Shown piece after piece: positions 31,474 through 58,772 of a DNA stretch of 64,000 nt (position 1 is the first letter of the stretch; each line of letters begins with the position of its first letter). Location of the stretch: NCBI GenBank assembly GCA_964586695.1, contig CAZPGQ010000001.1, forward strand, positions 5,350 to 69,349, given 5' to 3'. Source of the DNA: an uncultured Candidatus Saccharibacteria bacterium. GTDB lineage: Bacteria > Patescibacteriota > Minisyncoccia > Phycocordibacterales > DATDWN01. Made by a program: the position numbers and the translations under genes. The notes below the pieces were generated by a model that did not search any database, had not been told where the DNA came from, and was given only the letters and a program-made list of their open reading frames with translations.

Positions 31474-31477
31474 GTAT

Positions 31478-31714
31478 TTATTTAACTTCTTCTACTTCAA
31501 CTGTGTACTTTCGTGCCACAAAGAAAATGTAGAATATATCTAGGATACCGATTGTGTTTGCAAGCAAAATCACAATAAACCATTTTTTGTGTGAAAGCCT
31601 TGCTGCTTTCCACAGGGCAACACCTTTCCAAGGTATAGTCCACACTATTATGGTTGCCATAAGCCAAAGGGGAACCTGTATTCCACCATTTATGCTTTGA
31701 AGCAAAGTATCCAT
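31478..31714 (-). CDS. Small two-TM membrane protein
   Basis: 78 aa with two hydrophobic helices and a basic loop. Confidence 0.4.
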   Translation of the reverse strand: MDTLLQSINGGIQVPLWLMATIIVWTIPWKGVALWKAARLSHKKWFIVILLANTIGILDIFYIFFVARKYTVEVEEVK

Positions 31715-31778
31715 AGGGGCTATAATATCAAAAAACCCATATAATGCAATTCATTTTGTTTTAGGGTAAAGTAGAGTT

Positions 31779-32162
31779 ATGAAATATTTGGGCATTGATT
31801 ATGGTCTAAAAAACGTGGGTGTGGCCATTTCTGACGAAAGGCTAAAGTTCGCGTATCCACTGGTTGTATTGCAGAATTCCGATATATTGATTTTTGATAT
31901 AGGTAGGATCTGTAAGGAGAATAAAATCGTGGGTATTGTGGTTGGGGACTCAAAAGATTTTAGACAAAGAGACAACGAGATAATGAAAGTAGTAAAACCT
32001 TTTGCAGAAAGACTTGAGAGGGAACTCCAGATACCGGTATATTTTCACCCAGAGTTTATGACTTCAGTAGAAGCCGAGAGATTACAAGGAAAAAACAATA
32101 TGCATGACGCTTCTGCAGCAGCGTTAATATTAAAAAGTTATTTAGAAACACATTATGGATAA
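31779..32162 (+). CDS. ruvX: Holliday junction resolvase-like protein RuvX/YqgF
   Basis: MKYLGIDYGLKNVGVAISD N-terminus (catalytic Asp). 127 aa. Confidence 0.8.
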   Translation: MKYLGIDYGLKNVGVAISDERLKFAYPLVVLQNSDILIFDIGRICKENKIVGIVVGDSKDFRQRDNEIMKVVKPFAERLERELQIPVYFHPEFMTSVEAERLQGKNNMHDASAAALILKSYLETHYG

Positions 32163-32517
32163 TATAGAAACAAAACCAACAATAACAATAGATGACTTTC
32201 ATAAACTAGATATAAAGATAGGTCATATTTTATCCGCAGAAAAAATAGAAGGTGCAGATAAACTTCTGAAACTGTCTGTTGATATGGGAGAAGAGAAACC
32301 ACGACAAATAGTCTCTGGAATTTCATTATATTTTCCAGATCCACAAAATTTGGTAGGAAAAAAATGTGCATTTGCTGCAAATCTTGAGCCAAGAGTGATA
32401 AGAGGCCTTGAAAGTCAGGGAATGATACTTGCTGTTAGTGGTGGTGAAGGGGATTCATCATTTTTTTCATTACTTGAAACAAATGAAAAAGTTTTCCCAG
32501 GTTCTTCTGTGAAATAA
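32155..32517 (+). CDS. tRNA-binding domain protein (CsaA/EMAP/Myf-type OB fold)
   Basis: ITIDDFHKLDIKIGHILSAEKIEGADKLLKLSVDMGEE...RQIVSGI is the tRNA_bind domain signature. Confidence 0.7.
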   Translation: MDNIETKPTITIDDFHKLDIKIGHILSAEKIEGADKLLKLSVDMGEEKPRQIVSGISLYFPDPQNLVGKKCAFAANLEPRVIRGLESQGMILAVSGGEGDSSFFSLLETNEKVFPGSSVK

Positions 32518-32557
32518 CTCCTGTTTTTGAATTTATTTCTGGTATATAATTGAACTA

Positions 32558-33526
32558 ATGAAGTTCAATAAAATTTTTGATGCATTTCCTACACCAAAAT
32601 TTTTGGATATCCCATATGCGGGACTTTCTATATCTGATTCTGCTGTTCGTTGTATGCAATTTGGCAAAAAAGGTGGTGGGCTATATATAGAAAAGTACAC
32701 AGAAAAGGCACTACCTGTCGGTGTTATGACTAATGGTCAGATAAATAATCAAGAAGAGATAATAAAAGTAGTTTCTGAAATAAAAAAAGAGCTTAACCTA
32801 GATTATGTAAAAGTTTCTCTACCGGAAGAGAGAGCATATCTTTTTACAGCAAAAATTCCTGTAGTAGAAAAAGAAGAACTTAGAAGCGCGATAGAGTCAA
32901 AAATGGAGGAGAATGTTCCAGTTTCTCCATTGGAACTAACTTTTGACTACAACCTTTTTTACCACAAACAGAAAGAGCATCTAGATGTTTCTGTGTCTGC
33001 TATACCAATAAGTTTGATAGACCAATACGTAGATATAATGCAAAAGTCAGGACTCTCACTTTTGTCTCTTGAAATAGAGTCACAAGCTATTGTTAGTTCT
33101 CTTTTGCCAAAAAATAATCAAGGAACAACTCTGGTTGTGCATTTTAGTCCAGACAAAGTCGGTCTATACGTTTCTTATTATAGAGTTGTTTTGTTTACAT
33201 CTACTATCCAAACAAAAGGGGAGTACGCAAATAATCCAAGCTTTCTGCTTCAAGAAATTAAAAAATTATATACATACTGGCACACCTTAAAAGAAAATGT
33301 TGATAAGGATGATAAAAAAATATCTCAGATTTTTGTATGTGGAGAAAAATTCGAAGACAGCATGATTTCATATCTTGCTTCTCATCTTGATACGCCTGTA
33401 GGTTTGGGGAATGTGTGGACAAATGTGTTTGATATAGATAAAAACCTTCCAGAAATATCTTTTAATGATTCTCTAAAGTATTCTGGTCCGATTGGTCTTG
33501 CTTTGCCAAGAGATATATTAATATAA
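32558..33526 (+). CDS. pilM: Type IV pilus assembly protein PilM-like (actin-like ATPase fold)
   Basis: N-terminus FPTPKFLDIPYAGLSISDSAVRCMQF is typical of PilM. 322 aa. Followed by small TM proteins in PilN/PilO positions. Confidence 0.6.
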   Translation: MKFNKIFDAFPTPKFLDIPYAGLSISDSAVRCMQFGKKGGGLYIEKYTEKALPVGVMTNGQINNQEEIIKVVSEIKKELNLDYVKVSLPEERAYLFTAKIPVVEKEELRSAIESKMEENVPVSPLELTFDYNLFYHKQKEHLDVSVSAIPISLIDQYVDIMQKSGLSLLSLEIESQAIVSSLLPKNNQGTTLVVHFSPDKVGLYVSYYRVVLFTSTIQTKGEYANNPSFLLQEIKKLYTYWHTLKENVDKDDKKISQIFVCGEKFEDSMISYLASHLDTPVGLGNVWTNVFDIDKNLPEISFNDSLKYSGPIGLALPRDILI

Positions 33527-33527
33527 A

Positions 33528-34070
33528 ATGTTTAATTTATTACCAGAAAAAATAAGAGCAGAAATCCGAAAGGAGTACAATCACAGACGACTCGTGATGA
33601 TTTTGGTTTTTGTTATTTTTCTTCAAGTTGCATTTACTATATTTCTTTTTCCGACATGGCTTATGTCTGTAAACAAGGAAAAGGATGTAATAATACGAAG
33701 TGAAGATATGAATAAAAATCTTTCAAATCTTAATATTGCTTCTACTACAGCCAACATAAAATCGATAAATACTCAGCTAACAATAATCGATAACAAATTG
33801 CAGTATCCAGATATCGTTTCATTTATAAATCTTGTCTTATCAAAAAAGGCGACATCAACTACAATTTCTGACATTGTTTTTGTGGTAAATAGCGCCAAAA
33901 AAATGAATATTAATTTACAGGGGGTTTCTGCCACACGTGATACTTTGTCTGCCTTTTCAAAAAATTTACAGAAGATAGAGGAATTTAAAGCTGTAGATGT
34001 GCCACTATCTAGTTATACAAAAGATAAGAACCTTAGTTTTTCAGTTGAGATAAAAATAGAAACTAAATAG
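33528..34070 (+). CDS. PilN-like single-pass membrane protein
   Basis: Short cytoplasmic N-terminus, TM helix LVMILVFVIFLQVAFTIFLF and a periplasmic domain. Position after pilM. Confidence 0.45.
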   Translation: MFNLLPEKIRAEIRKEYNHRRLVMILVFVIFLQVAFTIFLFPTWLMSVNKEKDVIIRSEDMNKNLSNLNIASTTANIKSINTQLTIIDNKLQYPDIVSFINLVLSKKATSTTISDIVFVVNSAKKMNINLQGVSATRDTLSAFSKNLQKIEEFKAVDVPLSSYTKDKNLSFSVEIKIETK

Positions 34071-34071
34071 T

Positions 34072-34635
34072 ATGAAAAACTCTAAATCATTAAAAGGAAT
34101 AATTATAATGCTTTCATTATTTGTCTTGGTATTATTTGTGGCTCAGTATTTTGTATATAGAGATATCAAGATAAAGAATCAAAAAATTTCTGTTTTAGAA
34201 AGAGACCTTTCTTTGCAAGAGAATAGACAGGAGTATCTTATTTCAACAGAGAAACTAATTAACACAATGAGTTCTGATTTGGAAAAAATAGATAACTCTA
34301 TCCTAGCTTCTGACGGGGAAGTATCATTTATTAACAGCCTAGAAGATCTTGCCGAAAAGAATAATCTAAAGTTAGAGCCAGAATTTCTGGGCAGTGATGA
34401 AAATGATGCTTCGTTAAAGAATACAAACATAAAGACTTTTGTAATTAGGGCAAAAATAACAGGTTCTTGGGTAGATACATATACATTTATATCGGAGCTA
34501 GAGTCCAATCCAATAAAAATAAAAATTAATAAACTGGCTCTTTCAAATGTTTCGTTAGATTCAGGGATAGATGTTAAGAAACTTGGACAGAGATGGCAGA
34601 GTATATTTGAAATAGTTGTATTAAAATATAAATAA
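34072..34635 (+). CDS. PilO-like membrane protein
   Basis: N-terminal TM helix, then a coiled-coil, then a C-terminal domain. Synteny with pilM/pilN. Confidence 0.4.
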   Translation: MKNSKSLKGIIIMLSLFVLVLFVAQYFVYRDIKIKNQKISVLERDLSLQENRQEYLISTEKLINTMSSDLEKIDNSILASDGEVSFINSLEDLAEKNNLKLEPEFLGSDENDASLKNTNIKTFVIRAKITGSWVDTYTFISELESNPIKIKINKLALSNVSLDSGIDVKKLGQRWQSIFEIVVLKYK

Positions 34636-34636
34636 A

Positions 34637-34972
34637 ATGTCAGAACTATTTAAAAAAATTAAATCTTTGTTTAGTAAGTCAAAAAAAACAGAAAGTACTT
34701 ACGATAAAGCAGGGATCAGTCCAAAGAAAGATTGGTTTATTATATTACTTTCTGTATTTCTTATTTTGGTTATTCTTGTGGGTATTGCAGTTTATTTTTA
34801 TTTACAAATAAGTGCTGGAAATCTTTTTAAAGCCAAAGCAGGATCCTCTGATAATGAAGTAAAGATAAACCAAGTGTTGTTAGATAAAACTATTTCAGAA
34901 ACAAAACGTCGAAATGATTTTATTAATCAGATAAAGAGTGGGGAGGCTATTCCAAAGGACCCGTCTATTTAA
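34637..34972 (+). CDS. Hypothetical single-pass membrane protein in the pilus gene cluster
   Basis: TM helix FIILLSVFLILVILVGIAVYFYL. No motif. Confidence 0.35.
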   Translation: MSELFKKIKSLFSKSKKTESTYDKAGISPKKDWFIILLSVFLILVILVGIAVYFYLQISAGNLFKAKAGSSDNEVKINQVLLDKTISETKRRNDFINQIKSGEAIPKDPSI

Positions 34973-34975
34973 TTG

Positions 34976-35047
34976 TGCTCTCGGTAAGAATCGAACTTAC
35001 ATCAGCGGCTTAGAAGTCCGCGGTTCTATCCATTGAACTACGAGAGC
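34976..35047 (-). tRNA. tRNA-Arg (anticodon TCT)
   Basis: Reverse complement folds as acceptor GCTCTCG/CGAGAGC, D arm GTTC-AATGGAT-AGAAC, anticodon arm GCGGA-CTTCTAA-GCCGC, T arm GTAAG-TTCGATT-CTTAC, discriminator A. Confidence 0.75.
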
Positions 35048-35243
35048 AATGGCAATACATTAACATAAAATATGGATTTAGAAAATGGTGTTTCAAGGAC
35101 TCGACTCTTACAGAGTCGGTACACCTTTTCTGTTTTTATTTCACTTTGTTCATAAAAACTATCAAAGGTTTTCGAGTCCTGACGAAATTGCCACCGGCAA
35201 TTTCTTATCGCCACGCAAAAATCCGCCAAAGCGGATTTTCCTG

Positions 35244-35316
35244 TGCGCGATACAGGACTCGAACCTGTGACCTACCCGGTGTAAACGGGTTGCTCTACCA
35301 ACTGAGCTAACCGCGC
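35244..35316 (-). tRNA. tRNA-Val (anticodon TAC)
   Basis: Reverse complement folds as acceptor GCGCGGT/ATCGCGC, D arm GCTC-AGTTGGTA-GAGC, anticodon arm ACCCG-TTTACAC-CGGGT, T arm ACAGG-TTCGAGT-CCTGT, discriminator A. The terminator hairpin AAAATCCGC-TTTG-GCGGATTTT lies downstream on the minus strand at about 35200-35225. Confidence 0.8.
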
Positions 35317-35374
35317 GATGCATCCAGAATAACTCATATTGTCTCTTTTGTAAAATGACGCTACAATGGTCTAA

Positions 35375-36058
35375 ATGAAAACTCCGAACTGTATCGGGAT
35401 AATAATGGACGGGAATCGTCGCTGGGCTAAAAATAAAGGACTTCCAGTATTGGAGGGTCATAGAGCTGGTGGTAAGACTCTAAAGGATATCGTTAGATGG
35501 ACAAAGGATGCTGGTGTAAAACATCTTATTCTCTATACTTTTTCGACTGAAAATTGGAACCGAACAGAAGAGGAAGTCACATATCTACTTAACCTAATAG
35601 GAGAATTTATTGGAAAAGAGTTTGCCCACTTTAACAGCGAGGGTGGAGTGATGCATTTTGTTGGTGACCTATCTCGTTTTTCACCAGAACTACAAAAAAC
35701 ACTTATTGATGTAAGAGATAAAACTGCAAACAATACTGGTGTTAATATTTATTTCGCACTTAACTATGGTGGCAGACAAGAAATACTTTCTGCTGTAAAA
35801 AAAATAGTAGAAGAAAATCCAGTACAAGAAATCATTACAGACGAATATTTCGCAAAACATTTGCAGACAGGGGATATGCCAGATCCAGATATTATTATTA
35901 GAACTTCTGGAGAGATGAGACTTTCGGGCTTTTTGCCATGGCAAGGTGTATACAGTGAATTGTTTTTTACAAAAACGCTTTGGCCTGATTTTTCTAAAGA
36001 AGAGTTTATGAAAATAATAGAAGAGTATGGAGAGAGGGATAGGAGAATTGGTAAATAA
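35375..36058 (+). CDS. uppS: Undecaprenyl diphosphate synthase (isoprenyl transferase)
   Basis: GIIMDGNRRWAK...GH.AG and the conserved NYGGR / RTSGE...SGFLPWQ motifs. Confidence 0.85.
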   Translation: MKTPNCIGIIMDGNRRWAKNKGLPVLEGHRAGGKTLKDIVRWTKDAGVKHLILYTFSTENWNRTEEEVTYLLNLIGEFIGKEFAHFNSEGGVMHFVGDLSRFSPELQKTLIDVRDKTANNTGVNIYFALNYGGRQEILSAVKKIVEENPVQEIITDEYFAKHLQTGDMPDPDIIIRTSGEMRLSGFLPWQGVYSELFFTKTLWPDFSKEEFMKIIEEYGERDRRIGK

Positions 36059-36064
36059 ATCTAA

Positions 36065-36784
36065 ATGAATCCAACAATTTTATACGAAGATAATGACATT
36101 TTGGCTATTAATAAACCAGCCGGATTAGTTGTTCATAGTGATGGAAAAACAAATGAACCAAATTTGGTAGATTGGTTACTTTCAAAGTATCAAGATATAA
36201 AAAATGTAGGTGAGCCTGGTAGAAACGCAAAAGGTGAGGAAGTCTTGCGTTCCGGGATAGTTCATCGTTTAGATAGAGACACGTCTGGTGTAATGCTTGT
36301 GGCAAAGACACAAGAAGCTTTTGAAAGTCTAAAGTCTCAATTTCAAAATCATGAAATACAAAAAACATACCACGCCTTTTTGCTGGGTGAGCTAAAAACA
36401 GATAAGGGAACAATAGACCGACCAATAGGTCGAAGCAGTCGTGATTTTCGAATGTGGTCTGCACAAAGAGGGGCTAGGGGTGAACTCCGAGAGGCTGTAA
36501 CCGACTACAAAGTTTTAAATAGAAATAACGGCTATACATTTGTAGAAGTAAGTCCCAAAACAGGTAGAACACATCAGATTAGGGTGCATTTTAAGGCCAT
36601 AAACTATCCACTTATCGGTGACCCATTATATGCACCTACAAAGGAAAATAAGCTAGGCTTCGATAGAACCGCTCTGCATTCATATCAGGTAGTCTTTGTT
36701 GGGGTAGATGGGGTAAACCACACTGTTGTGGCTCCGTATCCAGAGGACTTTTCTTCTGCTATGGCTCTGTTGCAAAGCGCTTAG
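36065..36784 (+). CDS. RluA family pseudouridine synthase
   Basis: ILAINKPAGLVVH ... HRLDRDTSGVMLVAK catalytic Asp motif. Confidence 0.8.
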   Translation: MNPTILYEDNDILAINKPAGLVVHSDGKTNEPNLVDWLLSKYQDIKNVGEPGRNAKGEEVLRSGIVHRLDRDTSGVMLVAKTQEAFESLKSQFQNHEIQKTYHAFLLGELKTDKGTIDRPIGRSSRDFRMWSAQRGARGELREAVTDYKVLNRNNGYTFVEVSPKTGRTHQIRVHFKAINYPLIGDPLYAPTKENKLGFDRTALHSYQVVFVGVDGVNHTVVAPYPEDFSSAMALLQSA

Positions 36785-36809
36785 GGTTGTGTTAGATTAC
36801 TAGCTACTT

Positions 36810-37226
36810 ATGGAAATTCAATCACCAGTAAAAGTCCAGGACCGAAAAAACTTTGATATTAGATCAGGGGATACTATTCGAGTATGGCAGAAGATTCAAG
36901 AAAAAGACAAGACAAGACTACAGGCTTTTGAAGGCTTGGTTATTGCAGTAAAGCACGGAAAGGAGGCAGGAGCTACTTTCACAGTTCGACGAGTTGCTTC
37001 AGGAGTAGGGGTTGAGAAGATTTTCCCACTATACTCTCCAATTATCGATTCAATCGAAACTCTAAAGAGATCAAAAGTAAGACGGGCAAAGCTATATCAC
37101 GTGCGAGACAAGGCAGCAAAGGAAATCAGACGACAGATGAGAAATATAAGAGCACTTCCAGACAACACTCCAGGAGTAGAAGAAGTAGTAGAGGCTCCAG
37201 CTACAGAAGAAGCAAAAGCAGAATAA
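36810..37226 (+). CDS. rplS: 50S ribosomal protein L19 (with C-terminal extension)
   Basis: FDIRSGDTIRVWQKIQEKDKTRLQAFEGLVIAVKHGK...FTVRRV is the L19 core. Confidence 0.85.
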   Translation: MEIQSPVKVQDRKNFDIRSGDTIRVWQKIQEKDKTRLQAFEGLVIAVKHGKEAGATFTVRRVASGVGVEKIFPLYSPIIDSIETLKRSKVRRAKLYHVRDKAAKEIRRQMRNIRALPDNTPGVEEVVEAPATEEAKAE

Positions 37227-37230
37227 CAAA

Positions 37231-37256
37231 AAACTCCCAAATGGGAGTTTTTTGTT
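37231..37256 (+). terminator. Rho-independent terminator after rplS
   Basis: ACTCCCAAATGGGAGT hairpin followed by TTTTTTG. Confidence 0.65.
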
Positions 37257-37293
37257 TGAAATAATAACTAAACTCCAATATACTGCATCTATT

Positions 37294-37375
37294 GCCCGGG
37301 TGTTGAAATTGGTAGACATTTACCCTTGAGGTGGGTAAGCCGTAAGGTGTGGAGGTTCGAGTCCTCTCCCGGGCA
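37294..37375 (+). tRNA. tRNA-Leu (anticodon GAG), type II
   Basis: Acceptor GCCCGGG/CCCGGGC, D region TGTTGAAATTGGTAGACA, anticodon arm TACCC-TTGAGGT-GGGTA, long variable arm, T arm GGAGG-TTCGAGT-CCTCT, discriminator A. Confidence 0.8.
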
Positions 37376-37385
37376 CATAAAAAAT

Positions 37386-38036
37386 ATGTTTGGCACATTA
37401 GAAACAATATTGATTTCATATTCAGAAAAAATACCGCTGACAGCGTTCGCCTTTATTGCATCAATGGTTGAGGAAGTTGTGGCTCCAATACCATCTCCAG
37501 CTGTAATGATAGTTACGGGTTCCATTGCTTCTGTCCAAGAAAAAGTTTTTTACTATTTACTTGTATTATCAATATTGGGTGCCTTGGGTAAATTAATCGG
37601 AGCGATTTTTGTTTATTATATGGCAGACAAAATAGAAGATTTTTTTGCGGGGGTTGTGGAGAAATTTTTTGGTGTTACACACGAAGATATTGAGTCATTT
37701 GGAAAAAGATTGAGTGGAGGATGGAGAGATTATTTCATAATGTTTTTAATGAGGGCTTTACCAGTTGTACCTAGTTCTCTAGTTTCTATTGGAAGTGGTT
37801 TTTTGAAAATTCCCATGAAAGTTTTTATAGTATCGACTTTTTTGGGCTCAATAGTTAGGGATTTTATTTATATATATTTTGGTTATGCGGGTATTTCGGT
37901 TCTCGGGGCTTTTTTGAAAAAATCAGAATCTATTGAGTCGTTTATTCAGCTTGTTGCACTTATCATCATAATGGCAGGTTTAGTTTACGCATATGCTAAA
38001 AGACGGAAAAAATCTGTAGACACTTCTGTTATCTAG
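37386..38036 (+). CDS. DedA/TVP38 family membrane protein
   Basis: VEEVVAPIPSPAVMIVTG is the DedA motif. Start set at the Met after the tRNA; the track start overlaps the tRNA. Confidence 0.65.
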   Translation: MFGTLETILISYSEKIPLTAFAFIASMVEEVVAPIPSPAVMIVTGSIASVQEKVFYYLLVLSILGALGKLIGAIFVYYMADKIEDFFAGVVEKFFGVTHEDIESFGKRLSGGWRDYFIMFLMRALPVVPSSLVSIGSGFLKIPMKVFIVSTFLGSIVRDFIYIYFGYAGISVLGAFLKKSESIESFIQLVALIIIMAGLVYAYAKRRKKSVDTSVI

Positions 38037-38052
38037 TTATTCTGAATCCAGT

Positions 38053-39321
38053 TTATTTTTTAGAAGGGAGGATTATTTCAGTTGTTGTCCAATCTTTATC
38101 AAATACTGTTTTTAAACATTTGACCACATCAGTGTAGGTAATTTTTTCTCTTTCTTTTAACATAGAAGTTTTTGTTTTAACTTTTCCTGTTTGCCATATG
38201 TGAGATAGAACTTCATCTGTTGATTCTCCCGTGACTTCCTCCATTGATTTAAATCGGTCTATTCGTACTTGTTTCAATGTATTAAATCTTCCTTTTTCTT
38301 TACCAGAATAAATGTCATCAAGTGCTTTCCAGAATTCTGTCTTCACTGTTTCTATAGCCTCTTCTTTTGTTTTCAGATTTGCGCCCCATATTGTAAAGTC
38401 TCTCTGTATATATGAACCAGCACCAACTCCATAACATAATGCTCTCTCAGTACGAAGTCTTTCAAATAAAATATCATATAGAAGACTGGAACTCATAAGT
38501 TCTATTTGTTCGTTCGGACAATCATTGGTTTGCATTACTCTACCAAAAGTTATCTCTACTTGTTCTCTTGGATCACCAATTTCATCACTGTTTTTTACAA
38601 TATACAGCTTTTTTGGTTTTTGGATTTTTCCGAAATCTATTTTTGACTTTTTTGCTTTCGGTGCAAGTTTAATAAATTTTTCTATTTTCTTTAGATCCTT
38701 TTCTTTTATATTTCCTGATATAACAATAAAGAAATTTCCTTTACCGTAGTGGGCTTTGTGCCACTCCTTTATATCTTCCGTCTTTATTTTTTCTACTGTA
38801 TCTGGCCAGCCAAGTGGTGAAGAAGCATTGGCTCGTAGTGTTCCATGAAATGAATTCTCCAAGTCTTCTTTTATATATGAGAGTAATTTTTCATTTTTAA
38901 ATCGTCCCCAAGCTTCTTGAATAATAACTTTTCTTTCATGCTCTACATCTTCAGGTTTTAGGAGGGGATTAAAAATCATGTCAGCCATCCCGTCTAAAAC
39001 AACGTCTAGTTTTTCTGGCAGACATTTTAGGTGATAGTTTGTATTTGTAAAATGTGTCCAAGCATTCCAAGAGCCTAGTGTATTAACTTTTTTCCATTCT
39101 TCTATTATTTTCTTTGTTGGAAGTTTTGGTGAGCCGTCGAAAATAAGATGTTCGAGAAAATGTGAAATTCCTATAGTTTCAGGTTTGTCATTCAGCACTC
39201 CAACATTAAAACAGACGTGAATGTGTACACAGGGGGAGTTGGGAAAGTTTTTATAATACACAGGAACACCGTCTATAACTTTCTTTGAAAAATCGTAAGG
39301 ATCAAATGTTTTATTTGGCAT
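38053..39321 (-). CDS. M16 family zinc metallopeptidase (insulinase/pitrilysin-like)
   Basis: Inverted zinc-binding motif HFLEHLIFDG (HxxEH) near the N-terminus. Two-domain size. Confidence 0.8.
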   Translation of the reverse strand: MPNKTFDPYDFSKKVIDGVPVYYKNFPNSPCVHIHVCFNVGVLNDKPETIGISHFLEHLIFDGSPKLPTKKIIEEWKKVNTLGSWNAWTHFTNTNYHLKCLPEKLDVVLDGMADMIFNPLLKPEDVEHERKVIIQEAWGRFKNEKLLSYIKEDLENSFHGTLRANASSPLGWPDTVEKIKTEDIKEWHKAHYGKGNFFIVISGNIKEKDLKKIEKFIKLAPKAKKSKIDFGKIQKPKKLYIVKNSDEIGDPREQVEITFGRVMQTNDCPNEQIELMSSSLLYDILFERLRTERALCYGVGAGSYIQRDFTIWGANLKTKEEAIETVKTEFWKALDDIYSGKEKGRFNTLKQVRIDRFKSMEEVTGESTDEVLSHIWQTGKVKTKTSMLKEREKITYTDVVKCLKTVFDKDWTTTEIILPSKK

Positions 39322-39437
39322 GAGGTAAGTATATTACCAATTCAAACAATAGAGCAACTTAGGTATACACAAAGTCTTCTGGCTAACTTAGAAACCATCT
39401 TGTTTACCAGCAGGGAAATAAAGTATATAATATTTGC

Positions 39438-39929
39438 ATGGTTATAGTTTCGTGTAAATTATGCAGTAAAGAGTTTGGTGTTAAACCATCCTGGATTAAG
39501 TTGGGTTATGGAAAATATTGTTCTAGAGTTTGTCAGTATGAAGGAAGAAAAAGTGGAAAAGTTATTGCTTGTTCTGTTTGTGGAAAGGAATCATATAAAA
39601 ATAATAAAGCTATAAACGGTTCAAAAAGTGGTAAGTATTTTTGCGGTAAGTCCTGCCAAACTGTTTGGCGAAATGCTGAATTTGTTGGTAAAAAGCATGC
39701 AAATTATATTAACGGAAATGCTTCTTATAAAAGTATATTAGGTAGACATAAAATTCCTAGAATTTGTGGATTATGTGGGACTAGGGATTTAAGAGTTTTG
39801 GCGGTTCATCATATAGATGAAAATCATGTTAATAACGTATTAGAGAATCTAGCTTGGCTTTGCCACAATTGCCATTTTCTAGTGCATCATGATAAGGTAG
39901 AGAAGGCAAGATTTCTTGCCAGCAGGTAG
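39438..39929 (+). CDS. HNH endonuclease with N-terminal Cys-rich zinc-ribbon repeats
   Basis: Four or five CxxC pairs at the N-terminus. C-terminal LAVHHIDENHVNNVLENLAWLCHNCHFLVHH is an HNH motif. A TATATAAT box 7 nt from the ATG. Confidence 0.7.
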   Translation: MVIVSCKLCSKEFGVKPSWIKLGYGKYCSRVCQYEGRKSGKVIACSVCGKESYKNNKAINGSKSGKYFCGKSCQTVWRNAEFVGKKHANYINGNASYKSILGRHKIPRICGLCGTRDLRVLAVHHIDENHVNNVLENLAWLCHNCHFLVHHDKVEKARFLASR

Positions 39930-39933
39930 ACAT

Positions 39934-40007
39934 GGTGGCTATAGTGTAGCGGCTCTGCACGAAAGTTTGTGGAACTTTAAGTTCCGGTTCGACCCCGGAT
40001 AGCCACC
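39934..40007 (+). tRNA. tRNA-His (anticodon GTG) with encoded G-1 and C73
   Basis: G-1 then GTGGCTA/TAGCCAC acceptor. Anticodon arm AAAGT-TTGTGGA-ACTTT. T arm CCGGTTCGACCCCGG. Discriminator C. No CCA. Confidence 0.8.
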
Positions 40008-40078
40008 CTGCGATGAATTTCTCTAAAAAATCCTTACCGAGTAAGGATTTTTTAGTTCTATCTTGGTATACTTTTGGC

Positions 40079-52301: not shown

Positions 52302-52634
52302 ATGGATCTTAATGAATTTCAAAAAAAAGCTATAGAGACTGCGATGTACCCTGAAAAGCACAAGATAATTTATCCTGCACTGGGCTTGGGGGATGAATCT
52401 GGCGAGGTGCTTGGAAAGATAAGAAAGTGGCTAAGAGAAGACGATGGTAGTGCAGAAATGACTCATGAAAGAAAAGAATCAATAAAAGGAGAGCTCGGAG
52501 ACGTTATGTGGTTTGTGTCTAATTTAGCAAATGATCTGGGATTTGCTCTGGAGGATGTAGCAAAATTTAATATAGAAAAGTTGCAGTCTAGAAAAGAAAG
52601 AGGAGTCATAAAGGGTGATGGTGATAATAGATAA
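52302..52634 (+). CDS. MazG-like nucleotide pyrophosphohydrolase (small all-alpha NTP-PPase)
   Basis: LNEFQKKAIETA...LGLGDESGEV...ELGDVMWFVSNLA is the EExxE/D metal-binding helix pattern of MazG/HisE-type NTP-PPases. Confidence 0.7.
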   Translation: MDLNEFQKKAIETAMYPEKHKIIYPALGLGDESGEVLGKIRKWLREDDGSAEMTHERKESIKGELGDVMWFVSNLANDLGFALEDVAKFNIEKLQSRKERGVIKGDGDNR

Positions 52635-52635
52635 A

Positions 52636-54294
52636 ATGAAAGAAGAAATAATAAAACACATTGAAGATATTCTAAAAGAAAAAGGAGTTGAAAATCCTAA
52701 GGTTAATTTCACACCTTCTATATATCTAGATAAAGGAGACTACTCAACAAACGTTGCTATGGTGCACGCTAAGGAACTAAGTATGAAGCCTTTTGATTTG
52801 GCAGAAGAAATTAAAAATAAAATAAATAGTGATGGTGTTAAAGTTGAGGTTGCTCAACCTGGATTTATAAACTTCTTTTTTGATAAAAAATATTTTGGAG
52901 AAAATGTTTCGAAAATAATAGAGCAGGGTGGAGAGTTCGGAAAGAATGAAAGCTTGAAAGGACAGAAGACTATTATTGAGTACACTGACCCGAACCCTTT
53001 TAAGGAGTTCCATATTGGACACCTTATGCCTAATGTCACAGGAGAATCAATAGCTAGAATTTTGGATGCAAATGGAGCAGAAGTTAAGCGAGCAAACTAC
53101 CAAGGTGATGTGGGTCTCCATGTTGCAAAAGCTGTATGGGCTATCAAAAACCACAATAAACCTTTACTCGAAGCATATGCATTTGGTCACAAAGCATATG
53201 ACGAAGATGAAAAAGCTAAGCAAGAAATCATATATATAAATAAAAAAATCTACGACAAAAGTGATACGGAAATAAATGATATATACGAAGATGGAAGAAA
53301 GAAGTCACTTCTATATTTTGAAGTAATGTATGAAAAGCTGGGAACAAAGTTTGATTACTATTTTTTTGAAAGCGAAGTTGCAGAGTTTGGAAAAGAAACT
53401 GTCGAAAAAAATATTGGAAGTGTTTTTGAAAAAAGCGATGGAGCCGTTGTGTTTAAGGGAGAGAACTATGATAAAAAACTTCACACACGAGTTTTTGTGA
53501 ACAATGAGGGTTTGCCAACATACGAAGCAAAGGAACTTGGACTTTCCAAAATAAAGTTTGATACATACCCGTATGATAAATCGATAATAATCACTGGCAA
53601 TGAAATCAATGAATACTTCAAGGTTTTATTCAAGTCAATGTCATTTGTTTTTCCCGAGCTTGCTTCAAAAACACAACATGTCTCACATGGTATGCTCCGT
53701 TTACCAGAAGGTAAAATGTCATCTAGAACCGGAAACATTATTTCTGCCGAGTCTCTAATTGATCAAGTAAAAGAAAAAGTTTTAGAAAAAATGAAAGACG
53801 CAGAACTTAGCCAGGAAGAAAAGAACGAAACAGTTTACTCTGTTTCAACCGGTGCAATAAAATATTCAATCCTTCATCAAGCTATAGGTGGTGATATTGT
53901 TTTTGATTTTGATAAATCAATTTCATTTGAAGGTGACTCTGGCCCATATTTGCAATACTCTGCAGTACGAGCACATTCAATTTTGAAAAAAGCAGAGGGT
54001 GTAGTAAGTGTTTCAAAAAATATTCCTGAAAATTGGGAAACAACAAATATTGAAAGGTTGCTCGAAAGATTCCCAGATATTGTTGCTCGAGCAGGAAGTG
54101 AGTACGCTCCACACTACATTGCAACATATCTAATAGAACTAGCAGGGGAGTTCAACTCTTTTTACGCTCACCACAAAATAATTGACGAAGCTGATGTATC
54201 TTCTTCGTACAGGTTGGCTGTGACCCAAGCTTTCTACCAGGTAATGATTTCTGGTTTAAATTTGTTGGGGATTAAGGTGCCTGAAAAGATGTAG
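52636..54294 (+). CDS. argS: Arginyl-tRNA synthetase
   Basis: Class I HIGH motif (FKEFHIGHLMPNVTGE). KMSSRTG (the ArgS KMSK-variant). C-terminal DALR anticodon-binding domain. Start set at the Met after the mazG-like stop. Confidence 0.85.
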   Translation: MKEEIIKHIEDILKEKGVENPKVNFTPSIYLDKGDYSTNVAMVHAKELSMKPFDLAEEIKNKINSDGVKVEVAQPGFINFFFDKKYFGENVSKIIEQGGEFGKNESLKGQKTIIEYTDPNPFKEFHIGHLMPNVTGESIARILDANGAEVKRANYQGDVGLHVAKAVWAIKNHNKPLLEAYAFGHKAYDEDEKAKQEIIYINKKIYDKSDTEINDIYEDGRKKSLLYFEVMYEKLGTKFDYYFFESEVAEFGKETVEKNIGSVFEKSDGAVVFKGENYDKKLHTRVFVNNEGLPTYEAKELGLSKIKFDTYPYDKSIIITGNEINEYFKVLFKSMSFVFPELASKTQHVSHGMLRLPEGKMSSRTGNIISAESLIDQVKEKVLEKMKDAELSQEEKNETVYSVSTGAIKYSILHQAIGGDIVFDFDKSISFEGDSGPYLQYSAVRAHSILKKAEGVVSVSKNIPENWETTNIERLLERFPDIVARAGSEYAPHYIATYLIELAGEFNSFYAHHKIIDEADVSSSYRLAVTQAFYQVMISGLNLLGIKVPEKM

Positions 54295-54313: not shown

Positions 54314-54535
54314 ATGTCAAAAAAGTGGAAAATTTTCTATAAGACTCTAGGTTTTATTTTTATAGTAGTTGGTGTGTCTCTGTATTGGACCCCTGTTCCA
54401 GGCACAACTATTTTGATTATTCTTGGATTCGTATGGTTTATTGGTAAGTCAAAAACACTTTCTTTTTTCAAAGAGAACTTGAATAAGAAAGTATTCAGAT
54501 ACCTGAGACTCGGTGCAATAATTAAAAAAATGTAG
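54314..54535 (+). CDS. Small two-TM membrane protein
   Basis: 73 aa with two hydrophobic helices. Confidence 0.35.
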   Translation: MSKKWKIFYKTLGFIFIVVGVSLYWTPVPGTTILIILGFVWFIGKSKTLSFFKENLNKKVFRYLRLGAIIKKM

Positions 54536-54547: not shown

Positions 54548-54765
54548 AATAATTATGATAAGGTTTCCTTAACAGCGCTTAAGAGATTAATCACCTCTAG
54601 CTTTGGGAAGAAAACTGAAAGGTGAGTAGAACCCAACGGGTGGCCCGTTATAGCCATAAAGAGAAGTAAACAAGGTGGTACCACGAAGAAATTCGTCCTT
54701 GCTTAGGAACATATTGTTCCTGCGCGAGGACGAATTTTTTATTTAAAAATTATTAATAAATTATC
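54548..54765 (+). promoter_or_regulatory. T-box leader (tRNA-sensing riboswitch) upstream of ileS, with an intrinsic terminator
   Basis: T-box sequence AACAAGGTGGTACCACG at 54669-54685. Terminator TTCGTCC...GGACGAA plus TTTTTT at 54693-54740. Stem I has AGAGA/AGTAGA K-turn-like motifs, and an ATC triplet (Ile codon AUC) sits in the putative specifier loop (TTAATCACC). Confidence 0.75.
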
Positions 54766-54768: not shown

Positions 54769-57700
54769 ATGACTGAAGAAAATAAAAAAGGAGAAGTGGC
54801 TTTGAAAGAGGAAAAGATCCTTGAGTTTTGGAACGAAAAAGAAATTTTCAAAAAAACTTTGGACAGGAAATCAACAAAAGGAAACTTTGTATTTTACGAA
54901 GGCCCTCCTACTGCAAACGCAAAGCCAGCTCTGCACCACCTTGAGTCACGAGTTTTTAAAGACATCATTCCTCGTTTTAAAACGATGCAAGGTTTTTATG
55001 TGCGAAGAAAAGCAGGTTGGGATACACACGGACTTCCTGTTGAACTACAGATTGAAAAAAAACTTGGACTAAAATCAAAAAAGGAAATCGAAGCTTATGG
55101 GGTGGAGAAATTTAACAAAGAATGTAAAGACAGCGTGTTTCAATATATCGGTGATTGGGAAAAGTTTACTGATCGAATTGGATACTGGGTAGACAAAAAG
55201 GATGCTTACTATACTTTTGACACTCCATACATAGAGTCTGTTTGGAATATTTTGAAAACTGTAAACGAGAAAGGTTTGCTATATAAGGACTATAAAGTCC
55301 TTCCTTGGTGTCCTCGTTGTGGCACTGCACTATCTTCACATGAACTAGCTCAAGGTTATCAAGACGACAAAGATCTTTCTGTTACAGCAAAGTTTAAAAT
55401 AAAAGGTGTAGATAACGGGTACTTTTTAGCTTGGACAACAACACCTTGGACATTGCCTGGAAATGTTGCTTTGGCAGTCGGGCCAGATATTACATATGTC
55501 GAGGCAAAAGTAGGTAGTGAGATTCTAGTTCTGGCAAAAGAGAGACTTTCAGTTCTTACAGAGCCATACGAAATAGTAGCAGAACACAAGGGAAGTGAAT
55601 GTGTTGGAATGGAGTACGAACCACTATACCCATATATGCAAAAAAAGTTTGGAGACAAAAATCCAGAAGCTTTTGCAAAAGCATTTAAGGTTTATTCTGC
55701 TGAGTTTGTTACAACCACAGATGGAACAGGTATCGTTCACACAGCTGTGATGTACGGACAGGATGACTTTGTTTTGGGAAACCAAATTGGTTTACCAAAG
55801 TTTCATTTGGTAAAAGACGACGGGCACTATTTGGATGGAATGGATTTCTTGTCTGAAAGATTTGTTAAAGACGAGGAGGTCGCAGTGGATGTTATAAAAG
55901 ATTTAGCCCACAGAGGATTACTTTTCAACAAAGAAAAGTACGAGCACTCATACCCGCATTGTTGGAGATGCAAAACTCCTCTTATCTATTACGCGAGAGA
56001 CTCTTGGTATATTGCCATGTCAAAACTTCGTGGAGAGCTTCTTTCTGAAAATGAGGGCATCACTTGGGAGCCTGGACATATAAAAGAAGGCCGTTTTGGT
56101 GAGTGGTTAAAAGAAATAAAAGACTGGGCAATTTCTCGAGAAAGATACTGGGGAACACCACTGCCTATTTGGAAAAACGAAGAAGGAAAGATAAAAGTTA
56201 TTGGAAGTGTGGATGATTTGAAAAAGTTTTCAAAGAAGTCTGGAAATAAATACTACATAATCCGTCATGGAGAAGGTGAACACAATGTTGCAAACATAAT
56301 CAGTTCTAAAAAAGATGATAATTTTCATCTAACAGAAAAGGGAAAAGAACAGGTTAGGGTATCAGCTGAATTTATGAAAGAGAAGGGAATTACAAAGATA
56401 ATTTCTTCGCCTTTCATTAGAACAACAGAAACTGCTGAAATAATCAGAGAAATTTTAGGTTTGGATAAAAGCAAACTGATTTTTGATGAAAGACTTTCAG
56501 AACACGATCTCGGTGACCTAAATGGAAAACCTATAAGTGACTATCACAAGATTGCTAAGACAAATGAGGATATATATGAAATGAAGGTTGGCGGGGGAGA
56601 AAGTTTGGAAGATATGAAAGTTAGAACTGGAGAGTTTCTCTATGATGTTGATAAAAACAACAGTAATGAAAATATCCTGATTGTTACACATGAACACACT
56701 ACATGGGCATTAGAATCAGCTGGAAAAGGATTGAATAAAAAAGATACTGCGAGTTTAAGAAAAGAGCATCAGGAGTTTATAAAAAACGCAGAGATTCAAA
56801 ATTTGGATTTTGTTCAGATGCCACATAACTCGAAATATGAAATTGATCTTCACAAACCATATATCGATAGTGTAGAGCTTGTTGACGAAGATGGTACTAC
56901 TTTAACTCGAGTAAAAGAGGTGATGGACGTTTGGTTTGATTCTGGAGCGATGCCTTTTGCGCAGGATCATTTTCCTTGGAATGAAGGGGAGATTTCATAT
57001 CCAGCAGATTTTATTTCTGAGGCTATAGATCAGACACGAGGATGGTTCTACACACTGCACGCTATAGGTGTTTTGATGGGTAAAGGTAAGGCATACAAAA
57101 ATGTAATTTGTCTCGGTCACATACTTGATAGCGAAGGTAAGAAAATGTCGAAGTCGATAGGAAATATTATTGATCCATGGTTAATGATGGATAAATATGG
57201 AGTAGATGCTCTTAGGCTTTGGATGTACACAGTAAATAGTCCGGGGGATTCAAAAAACTTTGATGAGAAAACTGTTGATGAAATAGTAAAAAAAGTTTTC
57301 AATCCACTACTTAACATTGTCGCTTTCTATGAGTTGTATAAAGATGAAACTATTGTTGCACACAATAAAAGTGAAAATGTTTTGGATAAATGGATTTTGT
57401 CTCGGCTTAACGAACTCATAAAAAATGGAACAAATTCTTTGGAGAAGTTTCAGGTTTTTGAGTCCGCTAGACCGATAAGAGATTTTGTTAATGATTTTTC
57501 AACTTGGTATGTGAGACGATCAAGAGAGAGGTTTAAATCAGATGATAAAAATGAAAAAGGGGATGCACTGGGTACAACATTATTTGTGCTAAAGGAGCTC
57601 TCAAAATATATGGCACCTTTTACTCCATTTTTTGCAGAGCAGGTTTATCAGCAGATAAAAGTGGAAAGTGATGTAGAAAGTGCGCATTTGTGTGACTGGC

Positions 57701-58185
57701 CAGAAGCCGGACAAGTTGATTCCGAAATAATAGAAAGTATGAAAAAGGTTCGTGAAGTTGTAACTTCTGCTTTGGAGATAAGACAAAAGTCAGGACACAA
57801 AGTTCGACAACCTTTGGCGAAGCTTTCTATTCCAGAAAATCTGTCACAAAACTTACTCGATATCATTGCAGACGAGGTAAATGTAAAAGAAGTTGTGGTG
57901 GGTGGAAGCGAAGTAAAACTTGATACTGAACTAACAGAGGAATTAAAGAAAGAGGGAATTGCTAGGGATATCATTCGGGCTATTCAGGATGCTAGAAAGA
58001 AAGAAAACCTAAATCCAAATGATGCTATCAAAATTGTTATGTGCACTGACAAGAAGGAAATAGTAGATGGATACATGGAAATGATAAAATCTCCAACAGG
58101 TGTTAATGAAATATCTTATTCAGGAGACAAGCAAGCCTACCTGGTTGAGGTGGAGGGTAGTACTTCTTTCTCTGTGATAAAGTAG
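54769..58185 (+). CDS. ileS: Isoleucyl-tRNA synthetase carrying an embedded histidine-phosphatase (PGAM-like) domain
   Basis: HIGH-type motif PPTANAKPALHHLESR, CP1 editing motif TGIVHTAVMYGQDDF, ISRERYWGTPLPIW, DVWFDSG and KMSKSIGN. About 165 aa (protein 493-655, nt ~56245-56735) are inserted between PIW and DVWFDSG. The insert contains YIIRHGEGEHN (RHG signature), SPFIRTTETAEII and ILIVTHEHTTWAL. Confidence 0.9.
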   Translation: MTEENKKGEVALKEEKILEFWNEKEIFKKTLDRKSTKGNFVFYEGPPTANAKPALHHLESRVFKDIIPRFKTMQGFYVRRKAGWDTHGLPVELQIEKKLGLKSKKEIEAYGVEKFNKECKDSVFQYIGDWEKFTDRIGYWVDKKDAYYTFDTPYIESVWNILKTVNEKGLLYKDYKVLPWCPRCGTALSSHELAQGYQDDKDLSVTAKFKIKGVDNGYFLAWTTTPWTLPGNVALAVGPDITYVEAKVGSEILVLAKERLSVLTEPYEIVAEHKGSECVGMEYEPLYPYMQKKFGDKNPEAFAKAFKVYSAEFVTTTDGTGIVHTAVMYGQDDFVLGNQIGLPKFHLVKDDGHYLDGMDFLSERFVKDEEVAVDVIKDLAHRGLLFNKEKYEHSYPHCWRCKTPLIYYARDSWYIAMSKLRGELLSENEGITWEPGHIKEGRFGEWLKEIKDWAISRERYWGTPLPIWKNEEGKIKVIGSVDDLKKFSKKSGNKYYIIRHGEGEHNVANIISSKKDDNFHLTEKGKEQVRVSAEFMKEKGITKIISSPFIRTTETAEIIREILGLDKSKLIFDERLSEHDLGDLNGKPISDYHKIAKTNEDIYEMKVGGGESLEDMKVRTGEFLYDVDKNNSNENILIVTHEHTTWALESAGKGLNKKDTASLRKEHQEFIKNAEIQNLDFVQMPHNSKYEIDLHKPYIDSVELVDEDGTTLTRVKEVMDVWFDSGAMPFAQDHFPWNEGEISYPADFISEAIDQTRGWFYTLHAIGVLMGKGKAYKNVICLGHILDSEGKKMSKSIGNIIDPWLMMDKYGVDALRLWMYTVNSPGDSKNFDEKTVDEIVKKVFNPLLNIVAFYELYKDETIVAHNKSENVLDKWILSRLNELIKNGTNSLEKFQVFESARPIRDFVNDFSTWYVRRSRERFKSDDKNEKGDALGTTLFVLKELSKYMAPFTPFFAEQVYQQIKVESDVESAHLCDWPEAGQVDSEIIESMKKVREVVTSALEIRQKSGHKVRQPLAKLSIPENLSQNLLDIIADEVNVKEVVVGGSEVKLDTELTEELKKEGIARDIIRAIQDARKKENLNPNDAIKIVMCTDKKEIVDGYMEMIKSPTGVNEISYSGDKQAYLVEVEGSTSFSVIK

Positions 58186-58190: not shown

Positions 58191-58772
58191 ATGTCCTACC
58201 ACATCTACACAACAGAAGGGATCATTCTAAAGAGAGCTCCTTTTGGAGAGGCGAATTTGTTGTTGTATATTTTGACATCCGAACTAGGGCTTATTATTGC
58301 TTCGGCACGATCTGCTAGAGTATCTGCTTCAAAACTTCGCCCAGCATTGCAAGAATACGCCCACGTGTCTGTGTCTTGTGTTAAAGGGAAGGGTGGTTGG
58401 AAGGTTACAAATGTCGCGTCTATAGAGAACTATTTTTTTGAGTCACCAGAACATACACATAAAGTCATGGCGCAGATTGTGACTTTGCTAATTAAAATGA
58501 TGCCTGGTGAGGAGCGTCACACTGCAGTTTTTTCTTTGGTCAAAAGTGCCTTCACGGAAATAAAAAATATTGAAAAGGAGGGTCTAGAAAGTTTTGAGAT
58601 GTTGGTTGTTTTGAGGATTATGTTTGAGTTGGGTTATGTCGCAAAAAATAGTGAGATAGAAATATTTTTGAAAGATAATAATTGGGAAAATGATATTTTA
58701 AGGGAGGTGTCTGTTAATAGAAATATTTTACTTGGGGTTGTTAACAAGGCTATAAAAGAAAGTCAGCTGTAA
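58191..58772 (+). CDS. recO: DNA repair protein RecO (short form)
   Basis: N-terminal OB fold MSYHIYTTEGIILKRAPFGEANLLLYILTSELGLI is typical of RecO. 193 aa. Confidence 0.6.
   Translation: MSYHIYTTEGIILKRAPFGEANLLLYILTSELGLIIASARSARVSASKLRPALQEYAHVSVSCVKGKGGWKVTNVASIENYFFESPEHTHKVMAQIVTLLIKMMPGEERHTAVFSLVKSAFTEIKNIEKEGLESFEMLVVLRIMFELGYVAKNSEIEIFLKDNNWENDILREVSVNRNILLGVVNKAIKESQL

Follow-up and report, generated by a model that had tools for sequence, protein, structure and literature searches.

The stretch of DNA analysed here, referred to below as the window, comprises 64,000 nucleotides (nt) from an uncultured Candidatus Saccharibacteria bacterium (assembly GCA_964586695.1, contig CAZPGQ010000001.1, positions 5,350 to 69,349 of the forward strand). 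Its ileS gene, an uninterrupted open reading frame (ORF) at positions 54769..58185, encodes a type-2 isoleucyl-tRNA synthetase (IleRS) of 1138 amino acids (aa) with a complete histidine phosphatase nested inside the catalytic core. All features given below by window position lie on the plus strand. We regard the identity of both parts and their architecture as practically beyond doubt: one polypeptide holds two enzyme modules, and both are complete. A first, sequence-only reading of the window, made without database searches, had already proposed that a phosphatase resembling phosphoglycerate mutase, with an RHG motif, is fused in-frame into the IleRS core between the PIW and DVWFDSG motifs, at positions 56245-56735 (aa 493-655). 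Profile match, invariant residues and predicted fold now agree with this proposal.

The Pfam profile His_Phos_1 (PF00300) matches aa 496-658 of the ORF product (56254..56742), covering profile positions 2-164 of 194. With a gathering score of 21.7, the match reached 102.8 bits (E-value 2.4e-29) when the whole protein was searched and 107.1 bits when only the insert was; it is thereby confirmed as real and far above chance. The borders of the insertion emerged from alignments with synthetases that lack it. The IleRS2 structure of P. megaterium (Protein Data Bank (PDB) 8c8w), the best solved relative, aligns with aa 5-486 and 689-1051, having about six residues of its own in between, and the insert-less IleRS of locus L001, from the candidate phyla radiation (CPR), aligns with aa 14-488 and 693-1120. 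Relative to insert-less type-2 IleRS, both give the insertion a length of about 200 aa (aa ~489-692; 56233..56844) instead of the roughly 165 aa first estimated. It consists of the phosphatase module and short linkers, is flanked by ...DWAISRERYWGTPLPIW...IGSVDDLKK on one side and by ...LHKPYIDSVELV...DVWFDSG on the other, and the module has the full length of its stand-alone relatives of about 190 aa.

In the published nomenclature of IleRS, connective peptide 3 (CP3) comes after the CP2-3 linker, which lines the tRNA-site/reveromycin pocket, and in Thermus thermophilus IleRS CP3 bears a zinc motif (PMC7191050, PMC7955072). By alignment, the phosphatase is seated inside this CP3 subdomain. 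The last conserved IleRS element ahead of it is the CP2-CP3 linker with the strand DWAISRERYWGTPLPIW (aa 452-468; 56122..56172), which contains invariant residues and the flank ISRERYWGTPLPIW (aa 455-468) pointed out in the sequence-only reading; in yeast, the homologous segment ARDWNVSRNRYWG forms part of the lining of the reveromycin/tRNA-site pocket (PMC7955072). Unfused CPR relatives show a CxxC...CxC pattern at the insertion spot, namely CDKC...CSCD in L001 and CECG...CKKC in locus L006. These cysteines are missing from the window protein and from all 40 aligned fused homologs. The CP3 flanks of the window protein (56173-56232 and 56860-56925) read KNEEG...DEDG where the zinc-knuckle cysteines stand in L001, L006 and T. 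thermophilus. In another IleRS, P0229, the CP3 cysteines are kept and the phosphatase lies between them. The region is therefore more than a known connective-peptide or zinc-binding insertion of IleRS, as a phosphatase lies inside CP3, at the tip of the zinc knuckle of unfused relatives.

The conserved residues of the insert emerged when the window protein was aligned with 40 homologs that are 59-85% identical. Invariant in all 41 sequences are N493, R499, H500, G501, T522, G525, S547, R551, E578 and H641, and N506 is nearly so; the remainder of the insert is mostly variable. The RHG motif (R499, H500, G501; 56263..56271) belongs to the stretch YIIRHGEGEHN and provides the predicted phospho-accepting nucleophile, H500. 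The second phosphate-binding arginine, R551 (56419..56421), is found in SPFIRTTETAEII, the predicted general acid is E578 (56500..56502), and the second catalytic histidine, H641 (56689..56691), is found in ILIVTHEHTTWAL. All three motifs had been quoted in the sequence-only reading and are present, and the second arginine, the acidic residue and the second histidine follow one another in the canonical order of the family. In a pairwise alignment, R499-H500 correspond to R8-H9 of the phosphoserine phosphatase PspA from H. thermophilus (PDB 4ij5; 4ij6 is its H9A mutant). The module keeps the full catalytic set R499, H500, N506, R551, E578 and H641. Of a wider set of 272 domain copies, 226 show the complete pattern R-H-G-N-R-E-H, and about 90% of the complete copies retain all seven checked residues. 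Copies departing from it are chiefly fragments truncated by contig ends, copies with changes at G501 or N506 (positions called non-catalytic) and copies with E replaced by D. Where a copy extends over the position of R551, this arginine is retained in about 99% of cases, and the position of E578 is E or D in nearly all 272. This makes it very probable that the phosphatase domain, as predicted from its residues, is catalytically active.

Structure prediction points in the same direction. AlphaFold2 modelled the insert with a predicted local distance difference test score (pLDDT) of about 90 within full-length IleS, and alone with a pLDDT of 90.9 and a predicted TM-score (pTM) of 0.90. Since it is modelled this well on its own, the insert is predicted to be an autonomously folding module, as the sequence-only reading had suggested should be looked at. 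In the model R499-H500-G501 sit directly after the strand formed by aa 494-499, so that RHG stands at the end of strand 1 as is usual in the family, and the overall structure is the alpha/beta fold of the family (Foldseek E-value 1e-13, TM-score 0.74-0.79 to 4ij6, 6s2q, 1h2e and 4qih). Foldseek matches in the PDB comprised PspA (4ij6), the mycobacterial hydrolase 6s2q, PhoE, GpgP, HFP and TIGAR, with TM-scores of 0.70-0.79 and identities of 20-28%.

Membership in the superfamily, as a branch-1 histidine phosphatase, is certain, and the insert reaches the cut-off of no curated NCBIfam family. Phosphoglycerate mutase of the cofactor-dependent type (dPGM) was rejected on 95.2 bits against a cut-off of 225 (NF038349, dPGM_arch) and 28.9 against 81.7 (TIGR01258, pgm_1). 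CobC (TIGR03162, 75.1 against 162.9 bits), SixA (TIGR00249, 41.2 against 74.5), PspA (NF045917, 56.9 against 350) and GpmB (NF002901, 66.8 against 261) were rejected in the same way.

The synthetase around the insert is likewise complete, with an ALHH signature, a CP1 editing domain, the KMSKS loop, a domain for anticodon binding and a C-terminus of type 2. The ORF product scored 867.9 bits with the ileS equivalog TIGR00392 of NCBIfam (cut-off 621.4). Its closest sequence match in the PDB is IleRS2 of P. megaterium, 8c8w (E-value 4e-242), which is also the top Foldseek match of the IleS model. Pfam splits tRNA-synt_1 into two parts around His_Phos_1 and places Anticodon_1 and DUF5915 downstream, the latter being the type-2 C-terminal domain at aa 1048-1131. 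No acetyltransferase family, and hence no GNAT domain, is found among the Pfam matches of the window IleS. The CP1 editing domain (aa ~196-397; 55354..55959) matches the structure of the isolated T. thermophilus IleRS editing domain, 1wk8, with an E-value of 6.5e-29, and its TTTPWTLP motif is invariant in the 41 sequences. DVWFDSG (aa 720-726; 56926..56946) marks the re-entry into the second half of the Rossmann fold, and the KMSKS loop follows at aa 792-796 (57142..57156).

The sequence-only reading had called this synthetase otherwise canonical. That description fits the CP1 editing domain, DVWFDSG and KMSKS; it does not fit the class I signature, which is not HIGH or another form of the canonical HXGH but the non-canonical A54-L55-H56-H57 (54928..54939) of the G/AXHH type. 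H56 is invariant in the window protein and its 40 homologs, with xxHH as the consensus of the 41 aligned sequences. The ALHH motif is identical to that of IleRS2 from D. radiodurans (DrIleRS2). G/AXHH is a documented IleRS2 variant that is compatible with activity and raises the inhibition constant (Ki) of mupirocin up to about 1000-fold, and the D. radiodurans-type motif has been linked to a millimolar mupirocin Ki; the same paper connects the motif class with mupirocin hyper-resistance (PMC10485003). The resistance enzymes MupA and MupB were rejected as identities (NF000257 and NF000258; 777 and 809 bits against 1900); the window IleS is a type-2 relative and neither MupA nor MupB.

The architecture is common in Patescibacteria and reaches across a large part of the group. 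Among the best 120 matches of the full protein in a collection of 5.8 billion proteins, all 120 carry PF00300; they display 58-98% identity and lengths of about 1110-1210 aa, and derive from NCBI, JGI, ENA and Logan assemblies with contigs of up to 397 kb. Their named sources are almost all Parcubacteria, Minisyncoccia, Zambryskibacteria or Patescibacteria, with one partial match labelled Nitrospira. Taxon labels are those of metagenome bins, and a few, such as "Nitrospira" and "Gammaproteobacteria", are probably mis-binned. Species representatives of the GTDB were fetched by IleRS core patterns taken from the full-length alignment, an alignment of the insert alone having no conserved stretch of 7-10 columns; counts refer to the matches listed, limited to 600, and are not frequencies. 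Among these, the insert is confined to loci of Patescibacteria type. It is present in 14 loci (L008-L021), labelled Patescibacteria, Yanofskybacteria, Minisyncoccia, Spechtbacterales, Paceibacteria, Saccharibacteria or just "bacterium", and Gammaproteobacteria in the case of L017, and the IleRS of L061 (Peribacteria) has two tandem phosphatase copies. The other 65 loci listed lack it; they are mostly non-CPR type-2 IleRS and include one from Falkowbacteria and one from Saccharimonadales. A survey of CPR sequences, which the sequence-only reading had called for, thus revealed a lineage-wide insertion, together with stand-alone, multi-copy and valyl-tRNA synthetase (ValRS) versions.

Several sources annotate these proteins merely as "class I tRNA ligase family protein", and the architecture already shows in precomputed Pfam annotations. 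Full-text searching of the literature library covered found no description of a phosphatase within IleRS, and the word phosphatase is absent from a 2026 preprint devoted to the evolution of IleRS domains (bioRxiv 10.64898/2026.02.03.703510). What we report is therefore a known synthetase and a known phosphatase fold in a combination that we have not found described. Two scans of viral contigs yielded no relative, a tblastn search of INPHARED returned generic family members of at most 33% identity, and PADLOC gave no relevant match to a defence system.

Here, we have also uncovered relatives in which the phosphatase occupies other positions and occurs more than once. A HMMER search seeded with the embedded insert against 1.84 billion representatives gave 36 matches at E-values up to 1e-30 and 1036 at up to 1e-10. 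The best 150 representatives were mapped with a custom hidden Markov model and class I motif anchors, and the sites were verified by BLAST block mapping and reading of the junctions. Partners among these 150 are class Ia synthetases only: matches of at least 350 aa comprise 81 IleRS, three ValRS and four tandem fragments with phosphatase domains alone. The domain is found at four sites in surface loops of IleRS and ValRS, with one to four copies per synthetase. Site a is CP3, used by the window protein and most IleRS matches, by the tandem pairs of P0246, P0247 and L061, by copy 2 of the ValRS P0187 and by copies 2-4 of the ValRS-like P0121. Site b lies just past the return from CP1, at EPxxSxQWF, and is where copy 1 lies in P0187 and in P0121. 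P0166, P0240 and P0192 use both site c, between DxWFES and the FPADF...KMSKS segment, and site d, past KMSKS at the start of the helical domain; P0166, with its two copies at c and d, has an intact CP3 zinc knuckle. Of the multi-copy relatives P0121, P0187 (locus L003, 703-5319), P0166, P0240, P0192, P0246 and L061, two to three are valyl-tRNA synthetases. Copies inside one protein are 35-42% identical and nearly all keep the catalytic residues. As they have diverged this far, multiple active-looking copies must have been retained for long.

Some of these relatives carry further additions. P0229 (1066 aa, from JGI) has three foreign domains in frame, namely an IS200-like Y1 transposase domain in the editing region (aa 340-461), the phosphatase in CP3 and a GNAT domain after DxWFES; its ORF stops within or after GNAT, so that the gene is possibly truncated or split. 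The ValRS P0187 has about 280 additional residues, for which a sub-threshold match to LPD13, a polyvalent-protein domain, at aa ~650-780 is the only one. Directly upstream of this two-phosphatase ValRS gene, at 162-596 of locus L003, lies a gene for a toxin of the PemK/MazF type.

The same phosphatase gene either sits inside ileS or, in sister Paceibacteria lineages, adjoins it. In the window and in the fused relatives L092 and L094 the order is ArgS-[spacer]-IleS(with the histidine phosphatase, HP)-RecO-CLIPPER-class II aminoacyl-tRNA synthetase, and there is no separate phosphatase gene. The upstream anchor of this block, argS (52615..54294), was read as ArgRS from its translation without a profile test, its counterpart in related loci having ArgRS Pfam domains; the downstream anchor, recO (58191..58772), has a RecO_N match and the same place in related loci. 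The 64-kb window contains no second His_Phos ORF, and tblastn found no remnant of a free-standing gene in the 474-nt argS-ileS spacer. Many matches of about 200 aa come from fragmentary synthetase genes; truly free-standing proteins of about 189-199 aa exist too, labelled "histidine phosphatase family protein" or (broad specificity phosphatase) "PhoE" and assigned to Paceibacterota and Staskawiczbacteria. A search seeded with one of them, P0208, returned at least 120 clusters, all single-domain. Counts of neighbourhoods rest on nine free-standing proteins. For four of the nine (P0224, P0208, P0255 and P0354), the gene immediately precedes an ileS that lacks the insert, at distances of 1, 1, 7 and 98 nt, and the block order is ArgS-HP-IleS-x-RecO-CLIPPER. 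P0235 stands behind ArgS, and the next gene is cut by the contig end.

Two further observations concern the surroundings of free-standing genes. In locus L089 (348-2719), an RtcB RNA ligase and a tRNA-guanine transglycosylase are encoded 2.3-4.7 kb from P0257 on the opposite strand, which may be chance. In locus L004 (204-5354), P0222 is encoded beside a defence-type island with AbiEii, NERD, a MazG-like protein, an SLFN-like helicase and DUF3800, and this island occupies the position that argS and ileS have in other genomes.

An important aspect of this architecture is what the phosphatase might do. Going by what is known of the family, the module would hydrolyse a phosphomonoester through a phospho-His500 intermediate, with R499, R551, N506 and H641 holding the phosphate and E578 serving as the acid, and the synthetase part would charge and edit tRNA-Ile as usual. 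The sequence-only reading had offered action on the tRNA 3' end or on nucleotides related to the aminoacyl-adenylate, or a part in regulation, and each of these may apply. The reading we favour, a speculative one, is that the phosphatase may be a tethered clean-up enzyme which frees a macromolecule met by the synthetase of a blocking phosphate. A first candidate would be tRNA carrying a 2'/3'-phosphate or pyrophosphate on its 3'-terminal ribose and thus unchargeable, a modification that could come from nuclease damage or from toxin-mediated (pyro)phosphorylation of the CCA end. A second would be the serine in the KMSKS loop of the synthetase itself, when phosphorylated. Toxin kinases of the HipA/HipT type target the KMSKS-loop serine of other class I synthetases. 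The phosphatase could in that case be a built-in antidote carried by the target of the toxin, and charging of isoleucine and valine would continue under attack.

These proposals differ in strength. That an active phosphatase is coupled to the synthetase in function, beyond having been captured by it, is, in our judgement, a proposition with roughly equal weight on either side. That its specific substrate is the tRNA end or the KMSKS loop is a speculation which we consider doubtful, and the same low standing applies to the wider idea of a synthetase-embedded repair or immunity activity, apart from amino-acid editing, that would strip phosphate from the tRNA 3' end or the KMSKS serine. Of the loops that have received the domain, CP2 and CP3 are found on opposing sides of the catalytic domain and sites c and d in yet other places, and the number of copies varies from one to four; one precise geometry can therefore not be what is selected. 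What selection favours, we conclude, is that an active phosphatase is physically tethered to the synthetase, in no single fixed arrangement. The independent evidence here is provided by the four insertion sites and the ValRS cases.

Several points weigh against such a coupling. We know of no phosphorylated intermediate in the aminoacylation cycle, so the substrate has to be guessed. The nearest solved structures, at the 20-28% identity given above, belong to phosphatases that act on small molecules with broad or metabolic specificity. A median isoelectric point (pI) of 5.9 makes the embedded copies mildly acidic, which is not suggestive of RNA binding, though domain charge is an uninformative proxy for it, stand-alone proteins ranging from pI 4.8 to 10.1. 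The scattered insertion sites argue against channelling of a substrate from a defined active-site geometry. Because the search of representatives was seeded by an embedded copy, its top matches are biased to synthetase fusions. The neighbouring ArgRS (559 aa) has no insert, and coupling leaves the restriction to IleRS and ValRS unexplained. Among free-standing proteins, P0256, P0257 and P0182 have their genes at a distance from ileS, and P0222 belongs to the same downstream block, from which ileS is missing. The adjacent cases share one synteny block and may go back to a single ancestral arrangement instead of independent events. Separately, the idea of a dispensable cap region as a hint to macromolecular substrates found no support, the cap being about 40 residues long in 211 of 265 copies; P0054 and P0089, both outside this count, seem by eye to lack most of it.

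The main rival to a coupled phosphatase is a captured housekeeping enzyme, that is, a PhoE/PspA-like small-molecule phosphatase which was an operon neighbour of ileS, was inserted harmlessly and carries on an unrelated metabolic or salvage job. Its close N- and C-termini would permit insertion into a loop, and fusion would only secure co-expression in a streamlined genome. Much of what was just said fits this explanation: the domain's closest neighbours in both structure and sequence are phosphatases of small molecules and free-standing forms are labelled PhoE, the insertion sites are scattered over different faces of the enzyme, some free-standing relatives are unlinked to ileS, the domains are acidic, and a gene already beside ileS in a conserved block would be a simple source of DNA. 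Capture does not account, however, for at least four separate insertions, all into IleRS or ValRS, when no other protein among the best 150 representatives received the domain, nor for up to four diverged, catalytically intact copies in one synthetase, and read-through fusion of an upstream gene would have given an N-terminal and not an internal domain. We therefore rate capture as quite possible, somewhat short of an even chance.

Far less credit is due to the remaining explanations. The domain might be non-catalytic, either a structural stand-in for the lost CP3 zinc knuckle or a ligand sensor, binding for instance a phosphorylated metabolite, that tunes IleRS allosterically; the CP3 zinc cysteines are indeed gone where the domain sits in the window lineage, and some members of the histidine phosphatase superfamily act as binding proteins. 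We consider this very unlikely, given that the catalytic set is invariant among homologs of 59-85% identity and near-universal in copies down to about 35% identity, and that P0229 (in CP3) and P0166 (at other sites) carry the domain yet keep the zinc cysteines. It is more improbable still that the organism's own dPGM, or CobC, SixA or PspA, moonlights inside IleRS. The best NCBIfam match of the insert is the archaeal dPGM family NF038349, at 95 bits, but all curated equivalog cut-offs are missed widely, and the motifs FTGW and WRRS, which we take to be the substrate motifs of dPGM-type enzymes, are absent. Finally, the C-terminal junction PHN-S superficially resembles the HN/S of an intein, which raises the question of a self-splicing insert, or more generally of a selfish element, an assembly chimera or a mis-called frame. 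This is effectively refuted by the single uninterrupted frame and by the recurrence of the same architecture in more than 120 clusters from all four assembly sources, on contigs of the lengths given above. An intein in particular was rejected, as homologs have E, S, A, Q, D or K behind HN instead of C/S/T, and the fold is not Hint.

Upstream of ileS, the 474-nt spacer after argS is accounted for by two elements. One is an ORF of 73 aa with two hydrophobic stretches (54314-54535), and the other is a putative reduced T-box leader with an AUC (Ile) specifier and an intrinsic terminator (54569..54741). The latter matches RF00230 (leader at 54569-54703) with 47.3 bits and an E-value of 2e-9 for the region, against a gathering score of 93, and displays a much truncated stem I, a loop AUUAAUCAC showing AUC and then A, the GGUGGUACCACG box, and a terminator made of a hairpin and a U-run. 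The leaders of the relatives L092 and L094 score 55.9 and 67.9 bits, and both contain compensatory base changes. Beyond the window, the leader was detected only in these closest fused relatives and not, also by motif search, in six other, more distant CPR ileS loci. Elsewhere in the window, RNase P RNA of bacterial class A (4183-4533; 120 bits) and seven tRNA genes (Lys-UUU, Arg-GCG, Ser-UGA, Arg-UCU, Val-UAC, Leu-GAG and His-GUG, within 24631-40008) were found; the window contains no gene for tRNA-Ile.

Bacterial synthetases are regarded as architecturally conservative, with extra domains serving tRNA binding or editing. Here, a catalytically intact-looking enzyme of an unrelated class lies in the core of an essential synthetase, and the pattern of recurrence suggests that some phosphate-removal step is persistently linked to the charging of isoleucine, and of valine, in symbionts with minimal genomes. 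To our knowledge, no phosphate-removal step linked to either is known. If the substrate were tRNA or the synthetase itself, this would be a new layer of quality control or of protection against toxins in translation; if it were a metabolite, we would have a natural insertion of a whole enzyme domain that is useful for protein engineering and for annotation. Should the repair or immunity activity proposed above be real, it would represent a third catalytic function in an aminoacyl-tRNA synthetase, and it would account for the advantage of having the phosphatase tethered in whichever loop is near, and more than once.

Comparison with known systems sets both modules in context. With the type-2 IleRSs of P. 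megaterium (8c8u-w), T. thermophilus (1ile) and D. radiodurans (IleRS2), the window protein shares homology on both sides of the insert and the type-2 C-terminus; it differs from them by about 200 more residues in CP3, and it has lost the CP3 zinc cysteines of T. thermophilus IleRS and of unfused CPR relatives. Its insert has the same fold as the branch-1 phosphatases PspA/iPSP1 (4ij5), G. stearothermophilus PhoE/YhfR (1h2e), M. tuberculosis GpgP Rv2419c (4qih), HFP (9mmh) and TIGAR (3dcy), with RHG, second Arg, Glu and second His in a common order and a size near that of the free-standing relatives of about 190 aa. Unlike these enzymes, it is nested in the catalytic domain of another enzyme, or encoded immediately upstream of that enzyme's gene.

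Histidine phosphatase domains fused to nucleic-acid or tRNA machinery are known from the RNase H/acid phosphatase of the Rv2228c type and from TFIIIC tau55, in both of which the physiological substrate is unclear. The insert scores 68 bits with the Rv2228c-type family NF005567 against a cut-off of 326, and the fusions of NF005567 and tau55 are terminal, not insertions into a core, and have no synthetase partner. Additional domains of class Ia synthetases, such as the CP1 editing domain, the leucine-specific domain of LeuRS and the ARD2 "INS" of IleRS, are likewise nested at connective-peptide sites and tolerated by the cores; the INS subdomain of IleRS is treated in the preprint cited above (bioRxiv 10.64898/2026.02.03.703510). 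These domains bind tRNA or hydrolyse mis-acylated products, and none of them is a phosphatase. The nearest curated parallel is NF040702, ileS_w_GNAT, which like the window IleS describes an IleRS with an extra enzymatic domain. The domain is a different one, GNAT instead of a histidine phosphatase, and lies at another site, and the window protein, with 313 against 1999 bits, is not a member; P0229, in turn, holds both GNAT and the phosphatase in one IleRS.

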